From: Syntrophales bacterium
GTDB lineage: Bacteria; Desulfobacterota; Syntrophia; Syntrophales; UBA2251
Direction: 5' to 3'
Assembly: GCA_035358035.1 (NCBI GenBank)
Contig: DAOPOS010000001.1
Coordinates: forward strand, 37,189 to 101,188
Length of the DNA stretch: 64,000 nucleotides
Below are positions 1,552-18,197 of the stretch, in pieces; positions within the stretch are counted from its first letter, which is position 1; each line of letters starts with the position of its first letter. The notes beneath the pieces are model-generated. The model saw only the letters and a list, made by a program, of their open reading frames with translations, was not told the origin of the DNA and did no database searches. Made by a program: the position numbers and the translations under genes.

Positions 1552-3234
1552 ATGACTGGATACGGAAAACGATGGCTGGGCCTGCTGATGGCGCTTTTCA
1601 TCCTCCTGCCCGGCGCGGCCCGAGCGGCCGACGACGCCCTCGACACGGCCGTGGCCCTGAACTACTGCCACATGTCGCTGTACCGGATCACGGCCTTCAA
1701 CGACCGGGTCGTCCTCGACGAGGAGTACGGCGAGATCATCAACAACATCAATCTCTCCAGGATCCGCGACGAGGAGATCATCAACCTGCTGAAGACCCTG
1801 ATGGACACCATTTCCGACTTCAAACTGAAGGAGGGGGACCGGGACTTCCTCGTTCAGGAGTACGAACACCAGGTCCGCCGGGCCCTCTACACGTCCTTCT
1901 CCGACGTGAAGGACGCCGTCGCGGGGTCGACCACCCCGTACATGGCGGCGGCCAAGGTCCTGATCAAGGTGGGCAGCCTCTACTCGAACTACCGCAACAA
2001 TATGGCCGCCTACCGGCGCACCCTCGACAAGTCCGTCTGGGAACTCGACAAGAAGGCGATCGTCCGGGTCAACGACGCCCGGAAGAATTTTCTCGCGGCC
2101 TACTGGCGGCTGATGAAGAAATACGACATTCCCGACGAATGGCGGCTGACGGAGCGGCAGATGGAGCAGCTCACCGAGGCCCTCAAGGACGAGGACGGGG
2201 CGCGGCGGCTGCGGAAGCTCGTGCGGATGGAGGCGGCCTTTGCCGCCTATCCGCCCTTCTGGTATTTTCTCGGGCAGGCCGCGCAGGCCGAAGGGCAGGC
2301 CGAGGCGGCGCGCCAGGCCTACGACCGGTTCATGCGGACGCAGAAGGGATTCTTCCGGGAGGACGGCTTCGCCTCTTCCGTCCTCATGCACCGGATCGAA
2401 CTGTTGGACCCCGACCGGGACGCCGGCGAAATCGCGGACAACCTCGCTGCCATGATCAAGGAAAGCCCCCAGGACGTCCGGAAAAACCTCTTCGCCGCCC
2501 TGTGGTATCTGAAACTCGGCCGTTACGACGAGGCCCGGGAGCGGCTGCTGGTCAACATCGACAACAACCGCAACCTGGCCATGAGCCGGGTTCTCCTGGC
2601 CGACGTCTACGCCCGCAAGCTCGACCGCGAGCGGCTCGTCTCACTCATCGACGAGATGCTGCGCCAGGACGCGGTCCGCAACCAGGATGTCATCGCCGTC
2701 ATCGGACGCCTGCCGGAGGCGCAGATGCTCGCCCGGATGAAGGACCCGATCGCCGGCATCTACGTCAGCTTCGCCGCCCGGCCCTTGAAGAAGGACACCC
2801 TGATCCTGACCGTGCCGGACCGGTGGGTCATCGACGATCCGGAGCATTTCCGGGTGGCCCTCGACTTCCGTGGACGGACGGTCGCCCCCGGCCGGGTCAC
2901 GTCGGACAGGGCGCGACGGCTGGTGAGCTATCACTTCGACGAGGCCGTCGATCTCGACGCCTTCATCAAGCAGGGGAAGCCGGAGACCGTGTCCTTCACG
3001 CTGGTCCATCCCTCCGGGCCCGTCACGCTGGTCGGCGAAATGGCCGTCGTCTCCGTCGCCCACGAGAAGGGGCTTCTGAAGAAAGGGCTCGATACGACCG
3101 CCGGCCTTCTCGGTCGGGGAACGGGCGGGACGACGGAACGGGAGGCGGCCGTCGGCTTCGGCAAGCGTCTGCTCAAGACCCAGACGCGCTGCTGGCGGAT
3201 CGTCGCGGACGACCGCTTCGAGCCCTGTCCCTGA
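1552..3234 (+). CDS. Secreted, mostly helical (TPR-like?) protein of unknown function
   Basis: Track ORF 1468..3234. The start at MTGYGKRWLGLLMALFILLPGAARA is preceded by GGAGA with a 6-nt spacer, and a signal peptide is present. No family recognised. Confidence 0.7.
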   Translation: MTGYGKRWLGLLMALFILLPGAARAADDALDTAVALNYCHMSLYRITAFNDRVVLDEEYGEIINNINLSRIRDEEIINLLKTLMDTISDFKLKEGDRDFLVQEYEHQVRRALYTSFSDVKDAVAGSTTPYMAAAKVLIKVGSLYSNYRNNMAAYRRTLDKSVWELDKKAIVRVNDARKNFLAAYWRLMKKYDIPDEWRLTERQMEQLTEALKDEDGARRLRKLVRMEAAFAAYPPFWYFLGQAAQAEGQAEAARQAYDRFMRTQKGFFREDGFASSVLMHRIELLDPDRDAGEIADNLAAMIKESPQDVRKNLFAALWYLKLGRYDEARERLLVNIDNNRNLAMSRVLLADVYARKLDRERLVSLIDEMLRQDAVRNQDVIAVIGRLPEAQMLARMKDPIAGIYVSFAARPLKKDTLILTVPDRWVIDDPEHFRVALDFRGRTVAPGRVTSDRARRLVSYHFDEAVDLDAFIKQGKPETVSFTLVHPSGPVTLVGEMAVVSVAHEKGLLKKGLDTTAGLLGRGTGGTTEREAAVGFGKRLLKTQTRCWRIVADDRFEPCP

Positions 3235-3254
3235 AACGGGAGGAAGCCCGCATC

Positions 3255-4736
3255 ATGGAAATACGGCTGGCCGGCTACAACCTGGATTGCGACATCATCG
3301 ATGCGTGCAAAAAGCGCTTTGGCGACCGGGAAGACTGGACGCCGGAGACGATCTCCGCCGCCTACGCGCGGATCAGCCGCAGCCCGAAGACGGTGACCGA
3401 GCTGCGCGCCGACGCGCGCGCGGAGGTGGCGAAGGCCCGGCGCTCGAACGAAAGCATCGTCTTTGCGATGGGACACAGTTCCGTCGCCGAGCACGCCGTC
3501 TTCAACCTCGACTGCCTCGGCGTCTCGCGGCTCCTGGTCGAGGAGATCGAACGCTTCCGCCTGTGCTCCTACACGGAGAAATCCCAGCGCTACGTCCTGT
3601 TCCGGGACGACTTCGTTCTCCCGGAGGAGGTCCGGCGGGCGGGCCTCGCGGATGCCTTCACGGAGACGATCCGGGCGCAGTACGCCTGTTACCACGCGCT
3701 CTACGAGAAGCTGCGGCCGCATGTTTTCGCGCAACACCCGGACCTCGCCGCCGGGCCGGCCAACCGCGCCCTGCTCGAAGGCTGGGCAAAGGAGGACGCC
3801 CGCTACATCATCGCCCTGGCCACCGAAACCCAGCTCGGCATGACGCTCAACGCCCGCAACCTGGAGCTGATGCTCCGCCGGCTCGCCGCCCATCCCCTGC
3901 TCGAGGCGCAGGCGTGCAGCCGCGCGATGTACGCGTCGACCCAGGCCGTCGCTCCGTCGCTCATCCGCTATACCGAACCCATGGCGTACGATACGCGGAC
4001 CGGAACGGCCCTGCGGGAGGCCTGCGCGGCCTGGCTGGCCGAACACGGGGAGCCGGACGCCCCGGCCGATCGGGAGGCCGGCGTCCCTCCGGTGCGCCTG
4101 GTCCACGTCACCCCGGAGGCCGACGACCGGATCGCCGCCGCGCTCGTGCATGGGGCCTCCGCCCTTTCCCTCGACGCCTGCCGGCGCGCCGTCGCCGCGA
4201 TGCCGCCCGCGGCCAGGGCCGATCTCTTCCGGGCCGCCTTCCGCCACCTGGCATCCCACGACGCCGTCCGGCGGGAATTCGAATACGCCGATCTGACGTA
4301 CGAGCTGACGATGAGCGCCTCCTGCTACGCGCAGTGGAAGCGCCACCGGATGGCCACGATCACCGTCCAGGGCTACGACCCGGACCTCGGCGTCACGGTC
4401 CCGCCGGCGATCCGCGCGGTCGGAATGGAGCAGGCCTTTCTCGACGTCGTCGGACGGACGGAGGAGACGTACGAAACGATCCGCCGGGCGGCGCCGGAGG
4501 CGGCGCCCTATCTCCTGACGAACGCCCACCGGCGGCGGGTCCTGACGAAACTCAACGTCCGCGAACTCTACCACGTGGCGCGCCTCCGGGCCGACCGCCA
4601 CGCCCAGTGGGACATCCGGACGCTGACGGAGGCCATGCTCGATCTCGCCCGGGAGGCGATGCCCCTCGCCCTGATGCTCGCCGCGGGCAAGGACCGCTTT
4701 GCCGAACGGAGGGCCGAGGCCTTCGGCGAGCGCTGA
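3255..4736 (+). CDS. thyX: FAD-dependent thymidylate synthase-like protein with two tandem ThyX domains
   Basis: This is the 3' part of track ORF 1572..4736, starting at MEIRLAGYNL after GGGAGGAAG. Domain 1 reads HSSVAEHAVF..ERFRLCSYTEKSQRY and domain 2 reads YAQWKRHRMATITVQGY; both are ThyX-like signatures. Confidence 0.75.
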   Translation: MEIRLAGYNLDCDIIDACKKRFGDREDWTPETISAAYARISRSPKTVTELRADARAEVAKARRSNESIVFAMGHSSVAEHAVFNLDCLGVSRLLVEEIERFRLCSYTEKSQRYVLFRDDFVLPEEVRRAGLADAFTETIRAQYACYHALYEKLRPHVFAQHPDLAAGPANRALLEGWAKEDARYIIALATETQLGMTLNARNLELMLRRLAAHPLLEAQACSRAMYASTQAVAPSLIRYTEPMAYDTRTGTALREACAAWLAEHGEPDAPADREAGVPPVRLVHVTPEADDRIAAALVHGASALSLDACRRAVAAMPPAARADLFRAAFRHLASHDAVRREFEYADLTYELTMSASCYAQWKRHRMATITVQGYDPDLGVTVPPAIRAVGMEQAFLDVVGRTEETYETIRRAAPEAAPYLLTNAHRRRVLTKLNVRELYHVARLRADRHAQWDIRTLTEAMLDLAREAMPLALMLAAGKDRFAERRAEAFGER

Positions 4737-12041: not shown

Positions 12042-13328
12042 ATGGCCAGAACGGTCGCTTCTCTGCTCCTGATGCTGGTGTTGCTGCCCGCGGCGGCGGG
12101 CGCGGAAGAACCGATCCGGGCGGGGGAGACCCTGACCCTCGAACGCTGCCTCGCCATCGCCCTCAGCCGTCACCCGGATCTCCAGGCCGCCGCCCATACC
12201 GTCCGGGCGGGGGAATCCCGCATCGGCCAGGTCCGCGCGGACTACTACCCACAGGTGAGCGGCGCGGCCGGCTACAGCCGGACGGACCCCTCCGGGGCGG
12301 GGGGCGCCGCGGGGCGATCCAGCCGTCCGTCCGACAGCTATTCCTCCAGCCTCAGCCTGAGCCAGAACCTCTACGACTTCGGTAAAACCGCCTCCCGGGT
12401 CCGCATCCGGGAGCTGGACCGGGATTCGTCCCAGGCGGATTTCGAGCAGGTCCGCGCGCAGATTGTCCTCGGCGTGAAACAGGCCTACTGGGAACTCTTG
12501 AAATCCGAACGGGACCGGGAGGTCGCCCGGGAAACGGTGGGTCAGTTCCAGCAGCACCTGGACCGGGCCAGGGGGTTCTTCGACGTCGGCACGAAGCCGA
12601 AATTCGACGTCACCAAGGCGGAGGTGGATCTTTCCGGCGCGAAGCTCGCCCTCCTCAAGGCCGAAAACGCCTGGCGGCTGGCCCGGGTGTCGCTGAGCAA
12701 CGCCATCGGCCTGCCGGAGGCTCCGGAGTTCGCCATCGTCGATTCGCTCTCCGCGACGCGCGCGCCGGTTGCGCTGGACGAGGCCATCCGCCTGGCCTAT
12801 GACCGCCGGCCGAACCTCCGGGCGATTGCCATCCGGGTCCAGGCCCAGGCGGAAACGGTCAACCTTGCCAAAAAGGACCATTACCCCTTCCTGACGGGAA
12901 ACGCCCATTACGGGTGGGGCGGAGGCGACTTCCCCCTCGACGACGGCTGGAGCGTCGGCGCCCAGGTGAACGTTCCCCTGTTCAGCGGCTACGCCACGCA
13001 GTACCAGATCGAGGAGGCGCGGGCGACGCTGGATGCCCTGAACGCCAACCTGGCGGCGCTGCGGCAGACCGTCGCCCTGGAGGTGAAGCAGGCCTGGCTG
13101 AATCTCCGGGAGGCGTCGGACCGGATCGATGCGGCGGCCCTGTCCGTCCGTCAGGCGGAGGAAAATCTGGAGCTGGCCCAGGGCCGGTACGCGACGGGCG
13201 TCGGCAGCCCGATCGAGGTCACGGACGCCCTGGTGTCGGTCAGCAACGCGAAAACGGCGCACACCGCCGCGCTGTACGATTACCGGGTGGCGCAGGCGAG
13301 CCTGGAGAAGGCGACGGGAGAACGATGA
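12042..13328 (+). CDS. TolC-family outer-membrane efflux protein
   Basis: Track ORF 11970..13328, with ATG 6 nt after GGAGG. It has a signal peptide (MARTVASLLLMLVLLPAAAGA) and duplicated TolC-like repeats (LERCLAIAL..HPDL, YDRRPNL). Confidence 0.9.
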   Translation: MARTVASLLLMLVLLPAAAGAEEPIRAGETLTLERCLAIALSRHPDLQAAAHTVRAGESRIGQVRADYYPQVSGAAGYSRTDPSGAGGAAGRSSRPSDSYSSSLSLSQNLYDFGKTASRVRIRELDRDSSQADFEQVRAQIVLGVKQAYWELLKSERDREVARETVGQFQQHLDRARGFFDVGTKPKFDVTKAEVDLSGAKLALLKAENAWRLARVSLSNAIGLPEAPEFAIVDSLSATRAPVALDEAIRLAYDRRPNLRAIAIRVQAQAETVNLAKKDHYPFLTGNAHYGWGGGDFPLDDGWSVGAQVNVPLFSGYATQYQIEEARATLDALNANLAALRQTVALEVKQAWLNLREASDRIDAAALSVRQAEENLELAQGRYATGVGSPIEVTDALVSVSNAKTAHTAALYDYRVAQASLEKATGER

Positions 13329-14542
13329 AAAAGAAACTGCTGATCACGGGGGTTCTGGTCGCGGCGCTCGCGCTGGGCGGATATCTCCTCTTCAAGAAGA
13401 ACGGCGAGACCGTCCGCTACCGGACCGACCGGGTGACCCGGGGAGACGTGAGCGCGGCCGTCACGGCGACGGGCACGGTCAGCGCCGTCACCACCGTCAC
13501 CGTGGGCACGCAGGTGTCGGGCACGATCAGGCAGATCTTCGTGGACTACAACTCGCTCGTCCGGAAGGGGCAGCTCCTGGCCCAGATCGATCCCGCGCTG
13601 CCCCAGGCCAGGGTGGACCAGGCGCGCGCCAACCTGCAGTCCGCCGGCGCCGGCGTCGAGAAGGCCGAGGCGGCGCTCACCGACGCCCGGCGGACCCTGG
13701 AGCGGAACCAGACGCTCTACGCCCGGAACTACATCGCCCGCAGCGACCTGGACGCGGCGGAAACGGCCCACCGGTCGGCCCAGGCGCAGGTCAGCGTCGC
13801 CCGGGCCCAGGTCGCCCAGGCGCGGGCGACGCTGAACGCGGAGGAGACCAGCCTGCGCTATACCCGCATCCTGTCGCCGGTGGAGGGCACCGTCATTTCG
13901 CGCAACGTGGACGTCGGCCAGACCGTGGCGGCGAGTTTCCAGACGCCCACCCTCTTCAGCATCGCCCGGGATCTCACCGAGATGCAGATCGACACGAGCG
14001 TGGACGAGGCGGACATCGGCCGGATCCGGGTCGGCCAGGAGGTTCGGTTCACCGTGGACGCCTATCCCGATCTCAGCTTCACCGGGAAGGTTTCGGAGGT
14101 CCGCAACGCCCCGACGACGGTGTCGAACGTGGTCACCTACACCGTCATCATCAAGGTGGCCAATCCGGAACTCAAGCTGAAGCCGGGAATGACGGCCAAC
14201 GTCTCCATCATCACGGCGACCCGGAAGGGCGTCCTGACGATCCCGAACGCCGCCCTGCGCTTCAAGGGGCCGGAGAAAAAAACGACGGCCGGGGCCAGAG
14301 AAGCGGGCGCCCCCGCGGGGAGTTCCGCCGTGCGAACGCCTCCGGGGCAAACGATGCGGGACCTGTGGACGCTGTCCGACGGCAAACCCGTGCGCGTCCG
14401 CGCGGGGATCGGGATCAGCGACGGCAACCTGACCGAACTGACCGCCGGCCCCCTCAAGGAAGGCGACGTCGTCATCCTCGATGTCGCGGGCGCCGCGCAG
14501 CCGCAGGAGAACATTCCCCGGCCGCCGGGATTCTTCCGTTGA
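13325..14542 (+). CDS. macA: HlyD/MacA-type periplasmic adaptor (membrane fusion protein)
   Basis: ATGA overlap with the TolC-family stop. An N-terminal anchor is followed by coiled-coil and beta-barrel motifs (YTRILSPVEGTVISRNVDVGQTV). Confidence 0.85.
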   Translation: MKKKLLITGVLVAALALGGYLLFKKNGETVRYRTDRVTRGDVSAAVTATGTVSAVTTVTVGTQVSGTIRQIFVDYNSLVRKGQLLAQIDPALPQARVDQARANLQSAGAGVEKAEAALTDARRTLERNQTLYARNYIARSDLDAAETAHRSAQAQVSVARAQVAQARATLNAEETSLRYTRILSPVEGTVISRNVDVGQTVAASFQTPTLFSIARDLTEMQIDTSVDEADIGRIRVGQEVRFTVDAYPDLSFTGKVSEVRNAPTTVSNVVTYTVIIKVANPELKLKPGMTANVSIITATRKGVLTIPNAALRFKGPEKKTTAGAREAGAPAGSSAVRTPPGQTMRDLWTLSDGKPVRVRAGIGISDGNLTELTAGPLKEGDVVILDVAGAAQPQENIPRPPGFFR

Positions 14543-14658
14543 GCGCCGTCAGGACGGACCGGGCGCCGCGGATCGCGGTCGGGCGGCGATCGCCGTGTTC
14601 CGGTCTTTCCCGGAAGGCACATCCCGGCAAGGCCCCGGCAGGAAGGTGAAGAGGCGTC

Positions 14659-15416: not shown

Positions 15417-16646
15417 ATGATCAACATCCCGGCAACGTTCCGCATCTCCCTCCGCGCGCTGCGCGCCAACAAGATGCGTTCGGGGCTCACCATGCTCGGC
15501 ATCATCATCGGCGTGGGCGCGGTGATCGTCATGCTGGCCGTGGGGTCCGGGGCCAGCCGGCGCATCTCGCAGCAGATCGCCAGCATGGGCAGCAACCTGA
15601 TCATCGTCATGCCGGGGAGCAGCACCGCCGGAGGCCTGCGGATGGGCGCCGGGACGCAGTCCACCCTGACCCTGGGCGACGCCGAGGCCGTCGCCCGGGA
15701 GTGCACGGCCGTCGCCGACGTGGCGCCGATGCACAACGGCGCGGCCCAGATCGTGTACGGCAACCAGAACTGGGCGACCGGGATCGAGGGCTCCGGGCCC
15801 GGTATCCTGAACGTCCGGGACTGGACGCTCGCCGCCGGCCGGCCTTTCACCGATCAGGACGTCCGGAGCGCGACCAAGGTCTGCCTTCTGGGCCGGACCG
15901 CGGCGGACAACCTCTTCGGCAGCGCCGACCCCCTGGGCCAGATCATCCGGATCAAGAAGATCCCGTTCGTCGTCATCGGCGTCCTGGCGCCCAAGGGGCA
16001 GTCGATGATGGGCCAGGACCAGGACGACACGGTCATCGTCCCGATCACGACGGCGCAGCGGAAGATCTTCGGCACGCGCCTGCCGGGAATGGTCCGGCAC
16101 ATCGTCGTGAAGGCGCGCAGCGCCGACGAGATGGCGGAGGCGGAGGCGCAGATCACGGAACTCCTGCGCGAACGCCACCGCCTGACGCCGCGCGAGGAGA
16201 ACGACTTCACCGTGAGGAACCTGACCCAGATCATGCAGGCGGCCGAGCAGTCCACCCGGATCATGGCCCTGCTCCTGGCGGCGATCGCCTCCGTCTCGCT
16301 CCTCGTGGGCGGCATCGGGATCATGAACATCATGCTCGTCTCCGTGACGGAGCGGACCCGGGAAATCGGCATCCGCATGGCCGTGGGGGCCAAGACCTGG
16401 GACATCCGGCTGCAGTTCATCATCGAGGCCCTGACCCTGTCGCTCATCGGCGGCGTGATCGGGATCGTCCTGGGCGTCACGGGCGCGAAGCTCCTGTCGG
16501 TCCTGGCCGGCTGGTCGACCGTCATCTCCGTCCTGTCCGTTCTGCTGGCCTTCGGCTTCTCCGGTCTCGTGGGCCTGTTCTTCGGCTTCTACCCCGCCTA
16601 CAAGGCCTCCCAGCTGAACCCCATCGACGCCCTGCACTACGAATAG
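15417..16646 (+). CDS. MacB/FtsX-type ABC transporter permease
   Basis: Has the MacB periplasmic-domain architecture. The C-terminal FtsX motif is TERTREIGIRMAVGA. Confidence 0.9.
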   Translation: MINIPATFRISLRALRANKMRSGLTMLGIIIGVGAVIVMLAVGSGASRRISQQIASMGSNLIIVMPGSSTAGGLRMGAGTQSTLTLGDAEAVARECTAVADVAPMHNGAAQIVYGNQNWATGIEGSGPGILNVRDWTLAAGRPFTDQDVRSATKVCLLGRTAADNLFGSADPLGQIIRIKKIPFVVIGVLAPKGQSMMGQDQDDTVIVPITTAQRKIFGTRLPGMVRHIVVKARSADEMAEAEAQITELLRERHRLTPREENDFTVRNLTQIMQAAEQSTRIMALLLAAIASVSLLVGGIGIMNIMLVSVTERTREIGIRMAVGAKTWDIRLQFIIEALTLSLIGGVIGIVLGVTGAKLLSVLAGWSTVISVLSVLLAFGFSGLVGLFFGFYPAYKASQLNPIDALHYE

Positions 16647-16662
16647 CCTTCCCAGGATTCTC

Positions 16663-16691
16663 TTGACACGCAGGGGTCGGTTCTGTATCTG
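16663..16691 (+). promoter_or_regulatory. Weak sigma-70-like promoter candidate (TTGACA-N17-TATCTG)
   Basis: Hexamers read directly in the 222-nt gap before the 28-codon ORF. The -10 element is poor. Confidence 0.25.
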
Positions 16692-16868
16692 TTTTTTTGC
16701 GTGCAAACTCAGGCGATGATCCGCCTCATTGATCCGTGCACGCCTTCACCCAAGAGACGCGCGACCCCGACCCGCAGGGGTTCGTGCGGCCGCTTGACCC
16801 CACGCGGGGCGCCGTGGATCCGGGCGACAGCTTCGCGGCCACCCCTAACCCGACAGGGAGGTCCCCCC

Positions 16869-16955
16869 ATGAGCGACAGGCCGATCAAGCGGCGCGACTT
16901 CGTCAAGTGGGAGCGGCAGGTCGCGGTGAAACCGCGCGGGTGGCAAAAGACGTAG
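16869..16955 (+). CDS. 28-aa basic Trp-containing peptide MSDRPIKRRDFVKWERQVAVKPRGWQKT (candidate RiPP precursor or coupling uORF)
   Basis: GGGAGG lies 7 nt upstream of the ATG. 26 of 28 codons end in G or C, versus clearly lower GC3 in the upstream in-frame extension. The stop is 3 nt before the radical-SAM ATG. Confidence 0.5.
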   Translation: MSDRPIKRRDFVKWERQVAVKPRGWQKT

Positions 16956-16958
16956 CCC

Positions 16959-18197
16959 ATGGCGGAGACGGCGCCCAGGTCCATCCTCGTCAAGCCCGCC
17001 GGTCCGGACTGCGGCATGGCGTGCGGCTACTGCTTCTATTCCGGCAAGGCGGGGCTCTACCCTGAGACCGCAACCCACCGGATGGACGAGGCCGTCCTCG
17101 ACGCCACCCTGCGCCAGTTCCTGGACCAGCCCGCCTCCGAGCTCTCCATCGGCTGGCAGGGGGGCGAGCCCACGCTGATGGGTCTCCCCTTCTTCGAGCG
17201 GGCCGTGGCGCTCGAAGAACGCTACGGCGACGGCAAGACGATCGGCAACGGTCTCCAGACGAACGGCCTTTTGCTCGATCGCCGCTGGGCACGGTTCTTC
17301 CGGCAGTACCGGTTCCTGATCGGTCTGTCGATCGACGGGCCGGCGGACGTCCACGACCGGTACCGGGTGCGGCGCGGCGGGGGCGGCACGTGGGCGCGGG
17401 TCCGCGACGCGGCGCGGATGCTCCTGGACGAGGGGGTGCCGGTCAATGCGCTCACGGTGGTCAACGACGTCACCGCGCGCTTTCCGGACGAGATCTACGA
17501 TCATCACCGCGCGCTCGGCCTCGATTACATGCAGTTCATCCCCTGCGTGGAGACCGATCCGTCCGATCCGCGCCGCGCCGCGCCCTTCTCCGTCACGGCG
17601 GAGGCGTACGGCGCGTTCCTCTGCCGGATCTTCGACCGGTGGCGCGCCGATTTCCGCGATGGCAAGCCCCAGGCCTCGGTGCGCTTCTTCGAGTCGCTGC
17701 TGTTCGGCTATGCGGGCCTCGCGCCGCCGGACTGCACCCTGTGCGAGACCTGCGGCGACTACCTCGTCGTGGAGCACAACGGCGACGTGTATCCCTGCGA
17801 TTTCTTCGTGGAGCCTGCGGAGCGGCTGGGCAACCTGATGCGGGAGCCGCTGGCCGGGCTGTACGCGTCGGACCGGCAGCGGGACTTCGGCCGCCGCAAG
17901 GCCGCGCTGCCCGGGGCGTGCGTCGTCTGTCCCTGGCTTGCCCGCTGCCGGGGCGGGTGCCCCAAGGACCGGCGGCGCGACCCGCGCGATCTCGGCGTCA
18001 GCCACTTCTGTGCTGCCTACCAAAGGTTCTTCGCGCACGCGGACGGCGAGTTCGAGCGGCTGGTCGCCGCCTGGCGCCGCCGGACCGCGGCCGGGGAAGC
18101 GCCCCGGGAGCGGGCGGCGGCGGGCTCCCGCACGGGCCGGAACGCGCCCTGCCCCTGCGGGAGCGGTCTCAAGTTCAAGCGCTGCTGCGGCCGGTGA
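16959..18197 (+). CDS. Radical-SAM/SPASM enzyme, anSME-like architecture, with a C-terminal SEC-C motif
   Basis: CGMACGYC (Cx3Cx2C) at residues 18-25. SPASM Cys motifs are CTLCETCG..YPCDFF..CVVCPWLARCRGGCP. The tail is PCPCGSGLKFKRCC. Confidence 0.85.
   Translation: MAETAPRSILVKPAGPDCGMACGYCFYSGKAGLYPETATHRMDEAVLDATLRQFLDQPASELSIGWQGGEPTLMGLPFFERAVALEERYGDGKTIGNGLQTNGLLLDRRWARFFRQYRFLIGLSIDGPADVHDRYRVRRGGGGTWARVRDAARMLLDEGVPVNALTVVNDVTARFPDEIYDHHRALGLDYMQFIPCVETDPSDPRRAAPFSVTAEAYGAFLCRIFDRWRADFRDGKPQASVRFFESLLFGYAGLAPPDCTLCETCGDYLVVEHNGDVYPCDFFVEPAERLGNLMREPLAGLYASDRQRDFGRRKAALPGACVVCPWLARCRGGCPKDRRRDPRDLGVSHFCAAYQRFFAHADGEFERLVAAWRRRTAAGEAPRERAAAGSRTGRNAPCPCGSGLKFKRCCGR

Follow-up and report, generated by a model that had tools for sequence, protein, structure and literature searches.

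The 28-codon open reading frame (mini-ORF) situated immediately upstream of a radical-SAM gene in the Syntrophales DNA analyzed here, a stretch of 64,000 nucleotides referred to as the window, is almost certainly, judging by comparison with related loci (L numbers below), the remnant of a 521-codon sulfatase gene and not a new small gene. When aligned with the intact gene it reads as sulfatase Δ(14-506), in which codons 1-13 are fused to codons 507-521. It very probably represents a gene-remnant stub with a functionless peptide, and its translation may still feed the start of the adjacent maturase gene by termination-reinitiation. The locus is an ordinary operon of a sulfatase and an anaerobic sulfatase-maturating enzyme (anSME) from which a clean in-frame deletion has removed the sulfatase. 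We regard it as a new instance of known features, namely a gene remnant and, as we infer, termination-reinitiation coupling, and not as a new kind of element. The features of the locus are as follows:

16647-16868, + strand: former sulfatase upstream region (promoter/5′UTR), which today separates the MacB permease stop codon (TAG, 16644-46) from the mini-ORF
16663-16691, + strand: promoter-like TTGACA-17 nt-TATCTG, predicted from the sequence and identical in L084 and L176
16856-16861, + strand: Shine-Dalgarno (SD) GGGAGG, taken over by the mini-ORF from the sulfatase; pairing -12.1 kcal/mol
16869-16955, + strand: mini-ORF of 28 sense codons, product MSDRPIKRRDFVKWERQVAVKPRGWQKT followed by the stop
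16869-16907, + strand: mini-ORF codons 1-13 (MSDRPIKRRDFVK), corresponding to sulfatase codons 1-13, with the Tat n-region and twin-arginine motif and with the h-region missing
16888-16893 and 16912-16917, + strand: direct repeat AGCGGC, copies 24 nt apart, bounding the additional loss in L088/L177
16907-16908, + strand: deletion junction AAG/TGG, marking the loss of 1,479 nt (493 codons) from the sulfatase coding sequence
16908-16955, + strand: mini-ORF codons 14-28 and stop (WERQVAVKPRGWQKT followed by the stop), corresponding to the last 15 codons of the sulfatase
16953-16961, + strand: stop-start junction TAG-CCC-ATG, the presumed termination-reinitiation site
16959-18197, + strand: anaerobic sulfatase-maturating enzyme with Radical_SAM and SPASM domains (Pfam) and a C-terminal SEC-C motif at 18138-18194

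The initial annotation had drawn attention to this ORF on the basis of its composition and translation signals, and the individual sequence features that it described were borne out. The GGGAGG element is separated from the ATG at 16869 by a spacer of 7 nt (TCCCCCC), and 26 of the 28 codons end in G or C, as had been described for real genes here, giving a GC3 of 0.93 (GC1/GC2/GC3 of 0.57/0.46/0.93) against 0.87-0.97 in the neighboring genes. The in-frame extension from the GTG at 16701, said to have a lower GC3, indeed shows a value of 0.71 (GC1/GC2/GC3 of 0.63/0.77/0.71) and has a non-coding look, and the TAG stop at 16953-55 is followed by CCC and then by the maturase ATG at 16959, confirming the 3-nt gap. 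When the 1,630 ATGs of the window are ranked by predicted anti-SD pairing, the mini-ORF (-12.1 kcal/mol) falls in the top 0.9% and the maturase start (-6.0 kcal/mol) in the top 22%; at the latter, the pairing segment, GGTGG, lies too far upstream, in keeping with the earlier remark that this start has no good SD. Taken alone, composition and SD features are suggestive of coding and not decisive, since such features are not rare among the short ORFs of the window: in this DNA of 68% GC, a GC3 of at least 0.9 was found in 55 of 197 short ATG ORFs (20-60 codons), and a GC3 of at least 0.9 together with an SD of -10 or lower was found in 3 of the 197. The 28-amino acid peptide matched no NCBIfam or Pfam family. 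As we read them, it is the comparative data that settle the identity of the mini-ORF.

A tblastn search with the peptide against 80 loci having orthologous maturases returned matches to KWEKQVAANPRGW and KWERGVASNPRGW, which are the C-terminal tails of full-length sulfatases encoded directly upstream of the maturase in L001 and L004. In the reciprocal search, the first 13 residues of the peptide matched the Tat-signal N-termini of those same sulfatases. The agreement of both ends was quantified against the sulfatase of L086, whose N-terminus reads MSDNRITRRTFVK/MSAVTAATAAG..., using 200,000 shuffles per half in a fixed register. The N-terminal half of the peptide was identical to MSDNRITRRTFVK at 9 of 13 positions (p = 5e-6), and residues 13-28, with the junction Lys included, were identical at 12 of 16 positions to the L086 tail KWERQVAANPRGWVKK, which precedes the stop (p < 5e-6).

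The most direct comparison was provided by L176, which at the equivalent position carries an intact 521-amino acid, Tat-signal, Cys-type (CTPSR) sulfatase (N-terminus MSDRQITRRDFVK; C-terminus WERRVAANPRGWLKT, then the stop; gene end ...TGGCTGAAGACGTAGCCCATGGCG), and whose maturase is 93.2% identical to that of the window, with the downstream acyltransferase and HpaB genes also shared. Positions 201-424 of L176 (224 nt) are colinear with window positions 16647-16868 at 91% identity, and excision of L176 positions 464-1942 (1,479 nt) renders this locus colinear with window positions 16647-16995. After this correction the identity is 91% upstream and 90% in the ORF, and the remaining length differences amount to 1-2 bases in a C-run. 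The L176 sequence at the breakpoints (slashes) is cgcgacttcgtcaag/ATGGGC...GGAAGCG/tgggagcg, with a microhomology of 1 nt (G); a TGGG...TGGG microhomology at the junction was considered and rejected, as it would yield a different, out-of-frame junction. The junction takes the form GACTTCGTCAAG/NGGGAGCG or ACGCGG/CAGGTCGCG.

The translation signals have the same source. The GGGAGG SD also precedes the intact sulfatases of L176 and L085/L086, and a 3-nt gap separates the intact sulfatase from the maturase in L176, L085/L086, L167, and L171, being TAG-CCC-ATG in L176. The SD, ATG, stop, and 3-nt junction of the mini-ORF are inherited from the deleted sulfatase gene. The ancestor carried a gene of 521-523 codons for a Tat-exported CTPSR sulfatase, with its stop 3 nt before the anSME start and probably translationally coupled to it; an internal, in-frame deletion of 1,479 nt then fused codon 13 to codon 507, leaving behind the upstream region, the SD, the ATG, the first 13 and last 15 codons, the stop, and the TAG-CCC-ATG arrangement. 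That the ORF arose by chance in intergenic DNA rich in GC, beside a fortuitous SD, is refuted: the frequency of short high-GC3 ORFs in the window might speak for it, but both halves are homologous to sulfatase termini (p ≤ 5e-6) and the region can be aligned colinearly with the intact allele of L176. The product of the mini-ORF is a sulfatase remnant and not a member of the family: it contains neither PF00884 nor a C-x-P-x-R motif, and codons 14-506 of L176, including CTPSR, are absent from it. Nor does its N-terminal half amount to a Tat signal, in that KRRDFVK is present while the h-region (MGAATAATAAAGLLGC in L176) is deleted, and the mini-ORFs of L088 and L177 are additionally without the second Arg and the DFVK segment.

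Sulfatase-anSME systems, in which a formylglycine-dependent type I sulfatase is paired with a radical-SAM maturase, are exemplified by Klebsiella atsBA and Bacteroides chuR. The product of the gene downstream of the mini-ORF scored 380 bits against the equivalog model TIGR03942 (cut-off 349.45; profile positions 2-360 of 363) and matched the Clostridium perfringens anSME structures PDB 4K36-4K39 over residues 6-368 (E = 2.9e-67), including the GDVYPCDFF segment. Its radical-SAM cysteines C18/C22/C25, located in DCGMACGYCFY, are invariant in the maturase alignment, and omega among the deletion carriers is 0.20-0.27; the protein is 100% identical to HOD27614.1 (Syntrophales MAG). On this evidence we take it to be a bona fide anSME under purifying selection, with formylglycine-forming activity predicted. 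As in the sulfatase-anSME operon of C. perfringens (anSMEcpe, PDB 4K36), equivalog score and full-length similarity identify the downstream gene as an anSME, and the relatives L176, L085/L086, and L171 show the canonical order of a CTPSR sulfatase followed directly by the maturase. The window differs in that its sulfatase is cut to 28 codons and that none was found in the 64 kb (tblastn with four sulfatases), a point that speaks against the reading proposed here. CTPSR sulfatases are present in the orthologous loci L176, L085/L086, L171, L167, L168, L004, and L001. The maturase would be retained under selection presumably for sulfatases encoded elsewhere in the genome.

The maturase clade differs from characterized anSME in having an extra C-terminal SEC-C motif (PF02810), which in the window protein spans residues 394-412 (18138-18194; CPCGSGLKFKRCCGR). 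This motif is present in the maturase and in all of its best 120 homologs, from many anaerobic phyla, and is missing from the 370-amino acid C. perfringens anSME; a literature search returned nothing combining a SEC-C motif with radical SAM and sulfatase, and nothing on anSME together with translational coupling. Two further arrangements were noted among the relatives. In L167 (positions 2425-3997; a 75% relative), the sulfatase is split into ORFs of 405 and 105 amino acids that still end 3 nt before the maturase ATG, and the split could reflect a pseudogene created by a frameshift or an error in long-read assembly. In L089 (1114-1767), L169 (2751-3986), and L172 (1751-2986), maturase homologs of 72-74% identity follow a class-III aminotransferase at a distance of 14 nt and have no sulfatase next to them, so that this enzyme clade also occurs in another conserved context.

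The deletion was examined in five lineages, i.e., the window, L081-83, L084, L088, and L177. Maturase identity to the window is approximately 99% for L081-83, 90% for L084, and 86% for L088, while the L177 maturase is 92% identical to that of L088. In all five carriers the SD (AGGAGG in L088 and L177) and the ATG are kept, the frame is open, and the stop is followed by 3 nt and the maturase ATG. The mini-ORFs of L088 and L177 are 20 codons long (MADRHITRQVAAKPRRWLKT and MGDRHITRQVAANPCGWRKT, respectively, each followed by the stop), having lost a further 24 nt (8 codons), in frame, between AGCGGC/GCGGC direct repeats. The stub has persisted through approximately 10-20% nucleotide divergence (maturase dS 0.21-0.35) and a second in-frame loss. 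The initial annotation had named a lack of reading-frame conservation in relatives as refuting its interpretation; the frame is conserved in all carriers examined. The dN/dS test that it also suggested went the other way: omega of the mini-ORF is 0.89 (window-L084), 0.82 (L084-L088), 0.81 (L088-L177), and 0.44 (window-L088), and dN is 0.11-0.18 versus 0.04-0.09 in the maturase (0.12-0.13 versus 0.04-0.06 in the three pairs with an omega above 0.8), revealing no constraint on the peptide. Between the window and the L176 termini there are six replacements (Q5P, T7K, R17Q, A20V, N21K, and L26Q), and R15C is also found among the peptide changes. Several replacements affect residues conserved in intact sulfatases (W14R, N21K, G24R, and A20V), of which W14R in L084 and G24R in L088 strike residues that stay conserved in intact sulfatases down to approximately 55% identity. 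The peptide sequence evolves near-neutrally and unconstrained, presumably with no function of its own, and the notion of an unannotated small gene with its own role gives way to that of the joined ends of a deleted sulfatase gene. A role acquired by the peptide itself, e.g., titrating the maturase or the Tat machinery, is very hard to credit.

By maturase dS (L176-L084, 0.138; L176-window, 0.188; window-L084, 0.249), the intact L176 allele was observed to nest among the carriers, although the junction is identical in the window and L084. On these distances, the nesting would imply that alleles were exchanged through homologous recombination or that the intact gene was acquired anew. The deletion allele may be young and/or spread by recombination, leaving less time for decay.

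The setting of the mini-ORF superficially resembles the darobactin (DarA/DarE), dynobactin, and triceptide clusters, which combine a small ORF, a radical-SAM/SPASM enzyme, and ABC/TolC export. A RiPP precursor or micropeptide of a darobactin- or dynobactin-like kind would make the Trp-containing peptide the substrate of the radical-SAM/SPASM enzyme, with export through a MacAB-TolC-type system. The small ORF does lie directly upstream of such an enzyme gene, genes for TolC, an HlyD-type protein, an ABC ATPase, and an FtsX permease are found upstream, and the DynA, DarE, and DarW models appear as secondary matches to the enzyme. However, the enzyme passes the anSME equivalog cut-off, while its scores against peptide-maturase models remain far below theirs (bits/cut-off: DynA 172/450, DarW 147/650, DarE 112/650, YhhB 105/445, and XyeB 69/450). 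Orthologous enzymes are preceded by sulfatases of 521-526 amino acids or by the aminotransferase, and not by peptides, and the upstream neighbor varies, with AT-rich DNA in place of the MacB gene in L176. In addition, the peptide is unconserved (W14R, N21K, G24R, R15C, and the 8-codon loss; omega of 0.8-0.9 in three carrier pairs and of 0.44 in the remaining one). A RiPP precursor was thus rejected on enzyme family, synteny, and peptide non-conservation, and we consider it highly improbable; in contrast to the clusters named above, the window has an anSME ortholog, an unconserved peptide, and a sulfatase-derived ORF. A tempting RiPP lead is thereby removed, leaving a pseudogene stub beside a housekeeping sulfatase maturase. 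For small-ORF and RiPP mining, the case is a caution that a deleted gene can leave behind high GC3, a strong SD, and tight coupling, and because coding-like signals can arise in this way, both ends of a micro-ORF should be compared with the termini of the neighboring gene in relatives.

A classic example of translational coupling is trpE-trpD. In the mechanism proposed for the sulfatase stub, ribosomes would start at the strong SD/ATG inherited from the sulfatase, read through the 28 codons, stop 3 nt short of the maturase ATG, and reinitiate at that ATG, such that the stub would serve as a short leader ORF sustaining maturase synthesis; this role is proposed because the maturase start is without a good SD of its own. 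The mini-ORF is probably translated, and its translation and coupling to the maturase are plausible on account of its coding ancestry, its genuine SD and start, the stop-start geometry, and the signals kept in five lineages. We rate a functional coupling of the stub to the maturase at an even chance or somewhat better. The arrangement shows what is expected of coupled ORFs, i.e., a gap of 3 nt, an upstream ORF with its own ribosome binding site, stronger pairing at the upstream than at the downstream start (-12.1 vs. -6.0 kcal/mol), and the same geometry in carriers and in intact operons. Termination-reinitiation needs overlaps or very short gaps; with a +2-nt gap 30-95% of reinitiation is kept, with a 38-nt gap 80-100% is lost, and coupling in E. 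coli requires no more of the upstream gene than its final 15 nt or so (PMC10666635). The window is like the systems described by Huber et al. (2023; PMC10666635) in its 3-nt gap, strong upstream SD, and weak, misplaced downstream pairing, and differs from them in that its upstream cistron is a gene stub and its coupling, in an uncultured Syntrophales MAG, is deduced from the DNA. The weak SD-like pairing at the maturase start (-6.0 kcal/mol) might allow some independent initiation.

The persistence of the frame raises the further possibility, to which we assign even odds, that selection maintains the stub as a leader ORF acting in cis, with only in-frame, junction-preserving deletions tolerated, and this twice (1,479 nt and 24 nt). 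Under this proposal only deletions preserving the SD-ATG...stop+3 nt+ATG arrangement would be tolerated, because the maturase would depend on reinitiation from the sulfatase cistron. The two length changes are each divisible by 3. Out of frame, reading in +1 in the window would meet a stop 29 nt short of the maturase ATG, and reading in +2 would run past this ATG to a stop at 17063-65 (105 nt beyond). Among single substitutions, 10.7% would destroy the mini-ORF, and in a neutral simulation at the observed substitution loads of three comparisons the probability of ORF survival was 0.31, 0.40, and 0.40. When survival is multiplied by 1/3 for each length change (n = 2), the joint neutral chance comes to approximately 0.005, a post hoc figure from few lineages and from a substitution model that is uniform and takes no account of GC bias, by which the creation of stops is slowed.

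A neutral relic, i.e., a decaying fragment not yet disabled, beside a maturase translated independently or from another signal and with the frame kept by chance, is possible and in our estimation distinctly less probable. It accords with a peptide omega close to 1, with single-lineage survival probabilities of 0.3-0.4 each, with a deletion that may be recent or recombining, and with the equal divergence of ORF and non-coding DNA in the window-L084 pair (11.5% in the ORF vs. 11.3% in the upstream non-coding sequence), because of which no extra nucleotide-level constraint is seen in that pair. It accords poorly with the retention of SD, ATG, open frame, and exact stop+3 nt+ATG in five of five carriers, with the second length change being in frame as well, with the joint neutral probability of approximately 0.005, and with the lack of a well-placed SD at the maturase ATG. 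It also has to contend with L088 and L177, where the spacer is unrecognizable against that of the window and yet the SD and ORF persist. If frame retention is indeed selected, the locus would be a clean natural example of coupling constraining pseudogenization. Engineered non-polar in-frame deletions keep the first and last few codons of a gene and so spare downstream expression. The stub in the window has the same design but arose naturally; should the leader ORF reading be true, it would be a natural 'non-polar deletion', with coupling shaping gene death in operons.

The 222-nt spacer upstream of the mini-ORF is 89% identical to that of L084. The promoter-like element in it fails a strict sigma-70 scan, the last base of the -10 hexamer being G, and in the region between MacB and the mini-ORF neither a sigma-70 promoter (strict scan) nor an intrinsic terminator was detected. 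In L088 and L177, a promoter-like TTGACT-17 nt-CATCTT lies in an otherwise unalignable spacer (alignment score with the window spacer of 19, against 16.7 ± 2.4 for shuffles), and both spacer versions contain TTGAC(A/T)-17 nt-(T/C)ATCT(G/T). No similarity could be detected between the L088 spacer (196-323), which measures 128 nt from the MacB stop to the SD, and the 222-nt spacer that the window shares with L084 and L176; the L088 flanks (MacB 3′ end, mini-ORF, and maturase) are clearly homologous. The L177 contig begins inside the spacer (1-133), and its mini-ORF/maturase flank is homologous. An RNA element or riboswitch was rejected, as there was neither an Rfam match at E ≤ 1 (16400-17200) nor an unusual fold (z = +0.5, not better than shuffles), and a repeat or mobile-element origin of the 222-nt spacer was rejected because no second copy was found in the window or the loci. 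A perfect 9-nt inverted repeat (16807-16815 and 16968-16976; GGGCGCCGT and ACGGCGCCC) brackets the mini-ORF and the maturase ATG; it was dropped as an element and is probably fortuitous, its 3′ arm being broken in L084 without compensation. In L176, AT-rich DNA (positions 1-200) takes the place of the MacB permease gene, and the homology to the window begins precisely past the point at which the MacB stop codon would lie; MEKELKELEEERRKLYRRLSATGDFRRGMISV... is encoded on the reverse strand of this segment, which may be the edge of a mobile element. In the window, the upstream efflux operon has the order TolC, HlyD-type protein, MacB-ATPase, and MacB-permease and ends at 16646. The long ORF at 13129-14649 (506 amino acids) in this region matched no family, and the HlyD-type membrane-fusion protein is encoded by the ORF in the overlapping frame, 12914-14542 (HlyD_D23, 6e-23).
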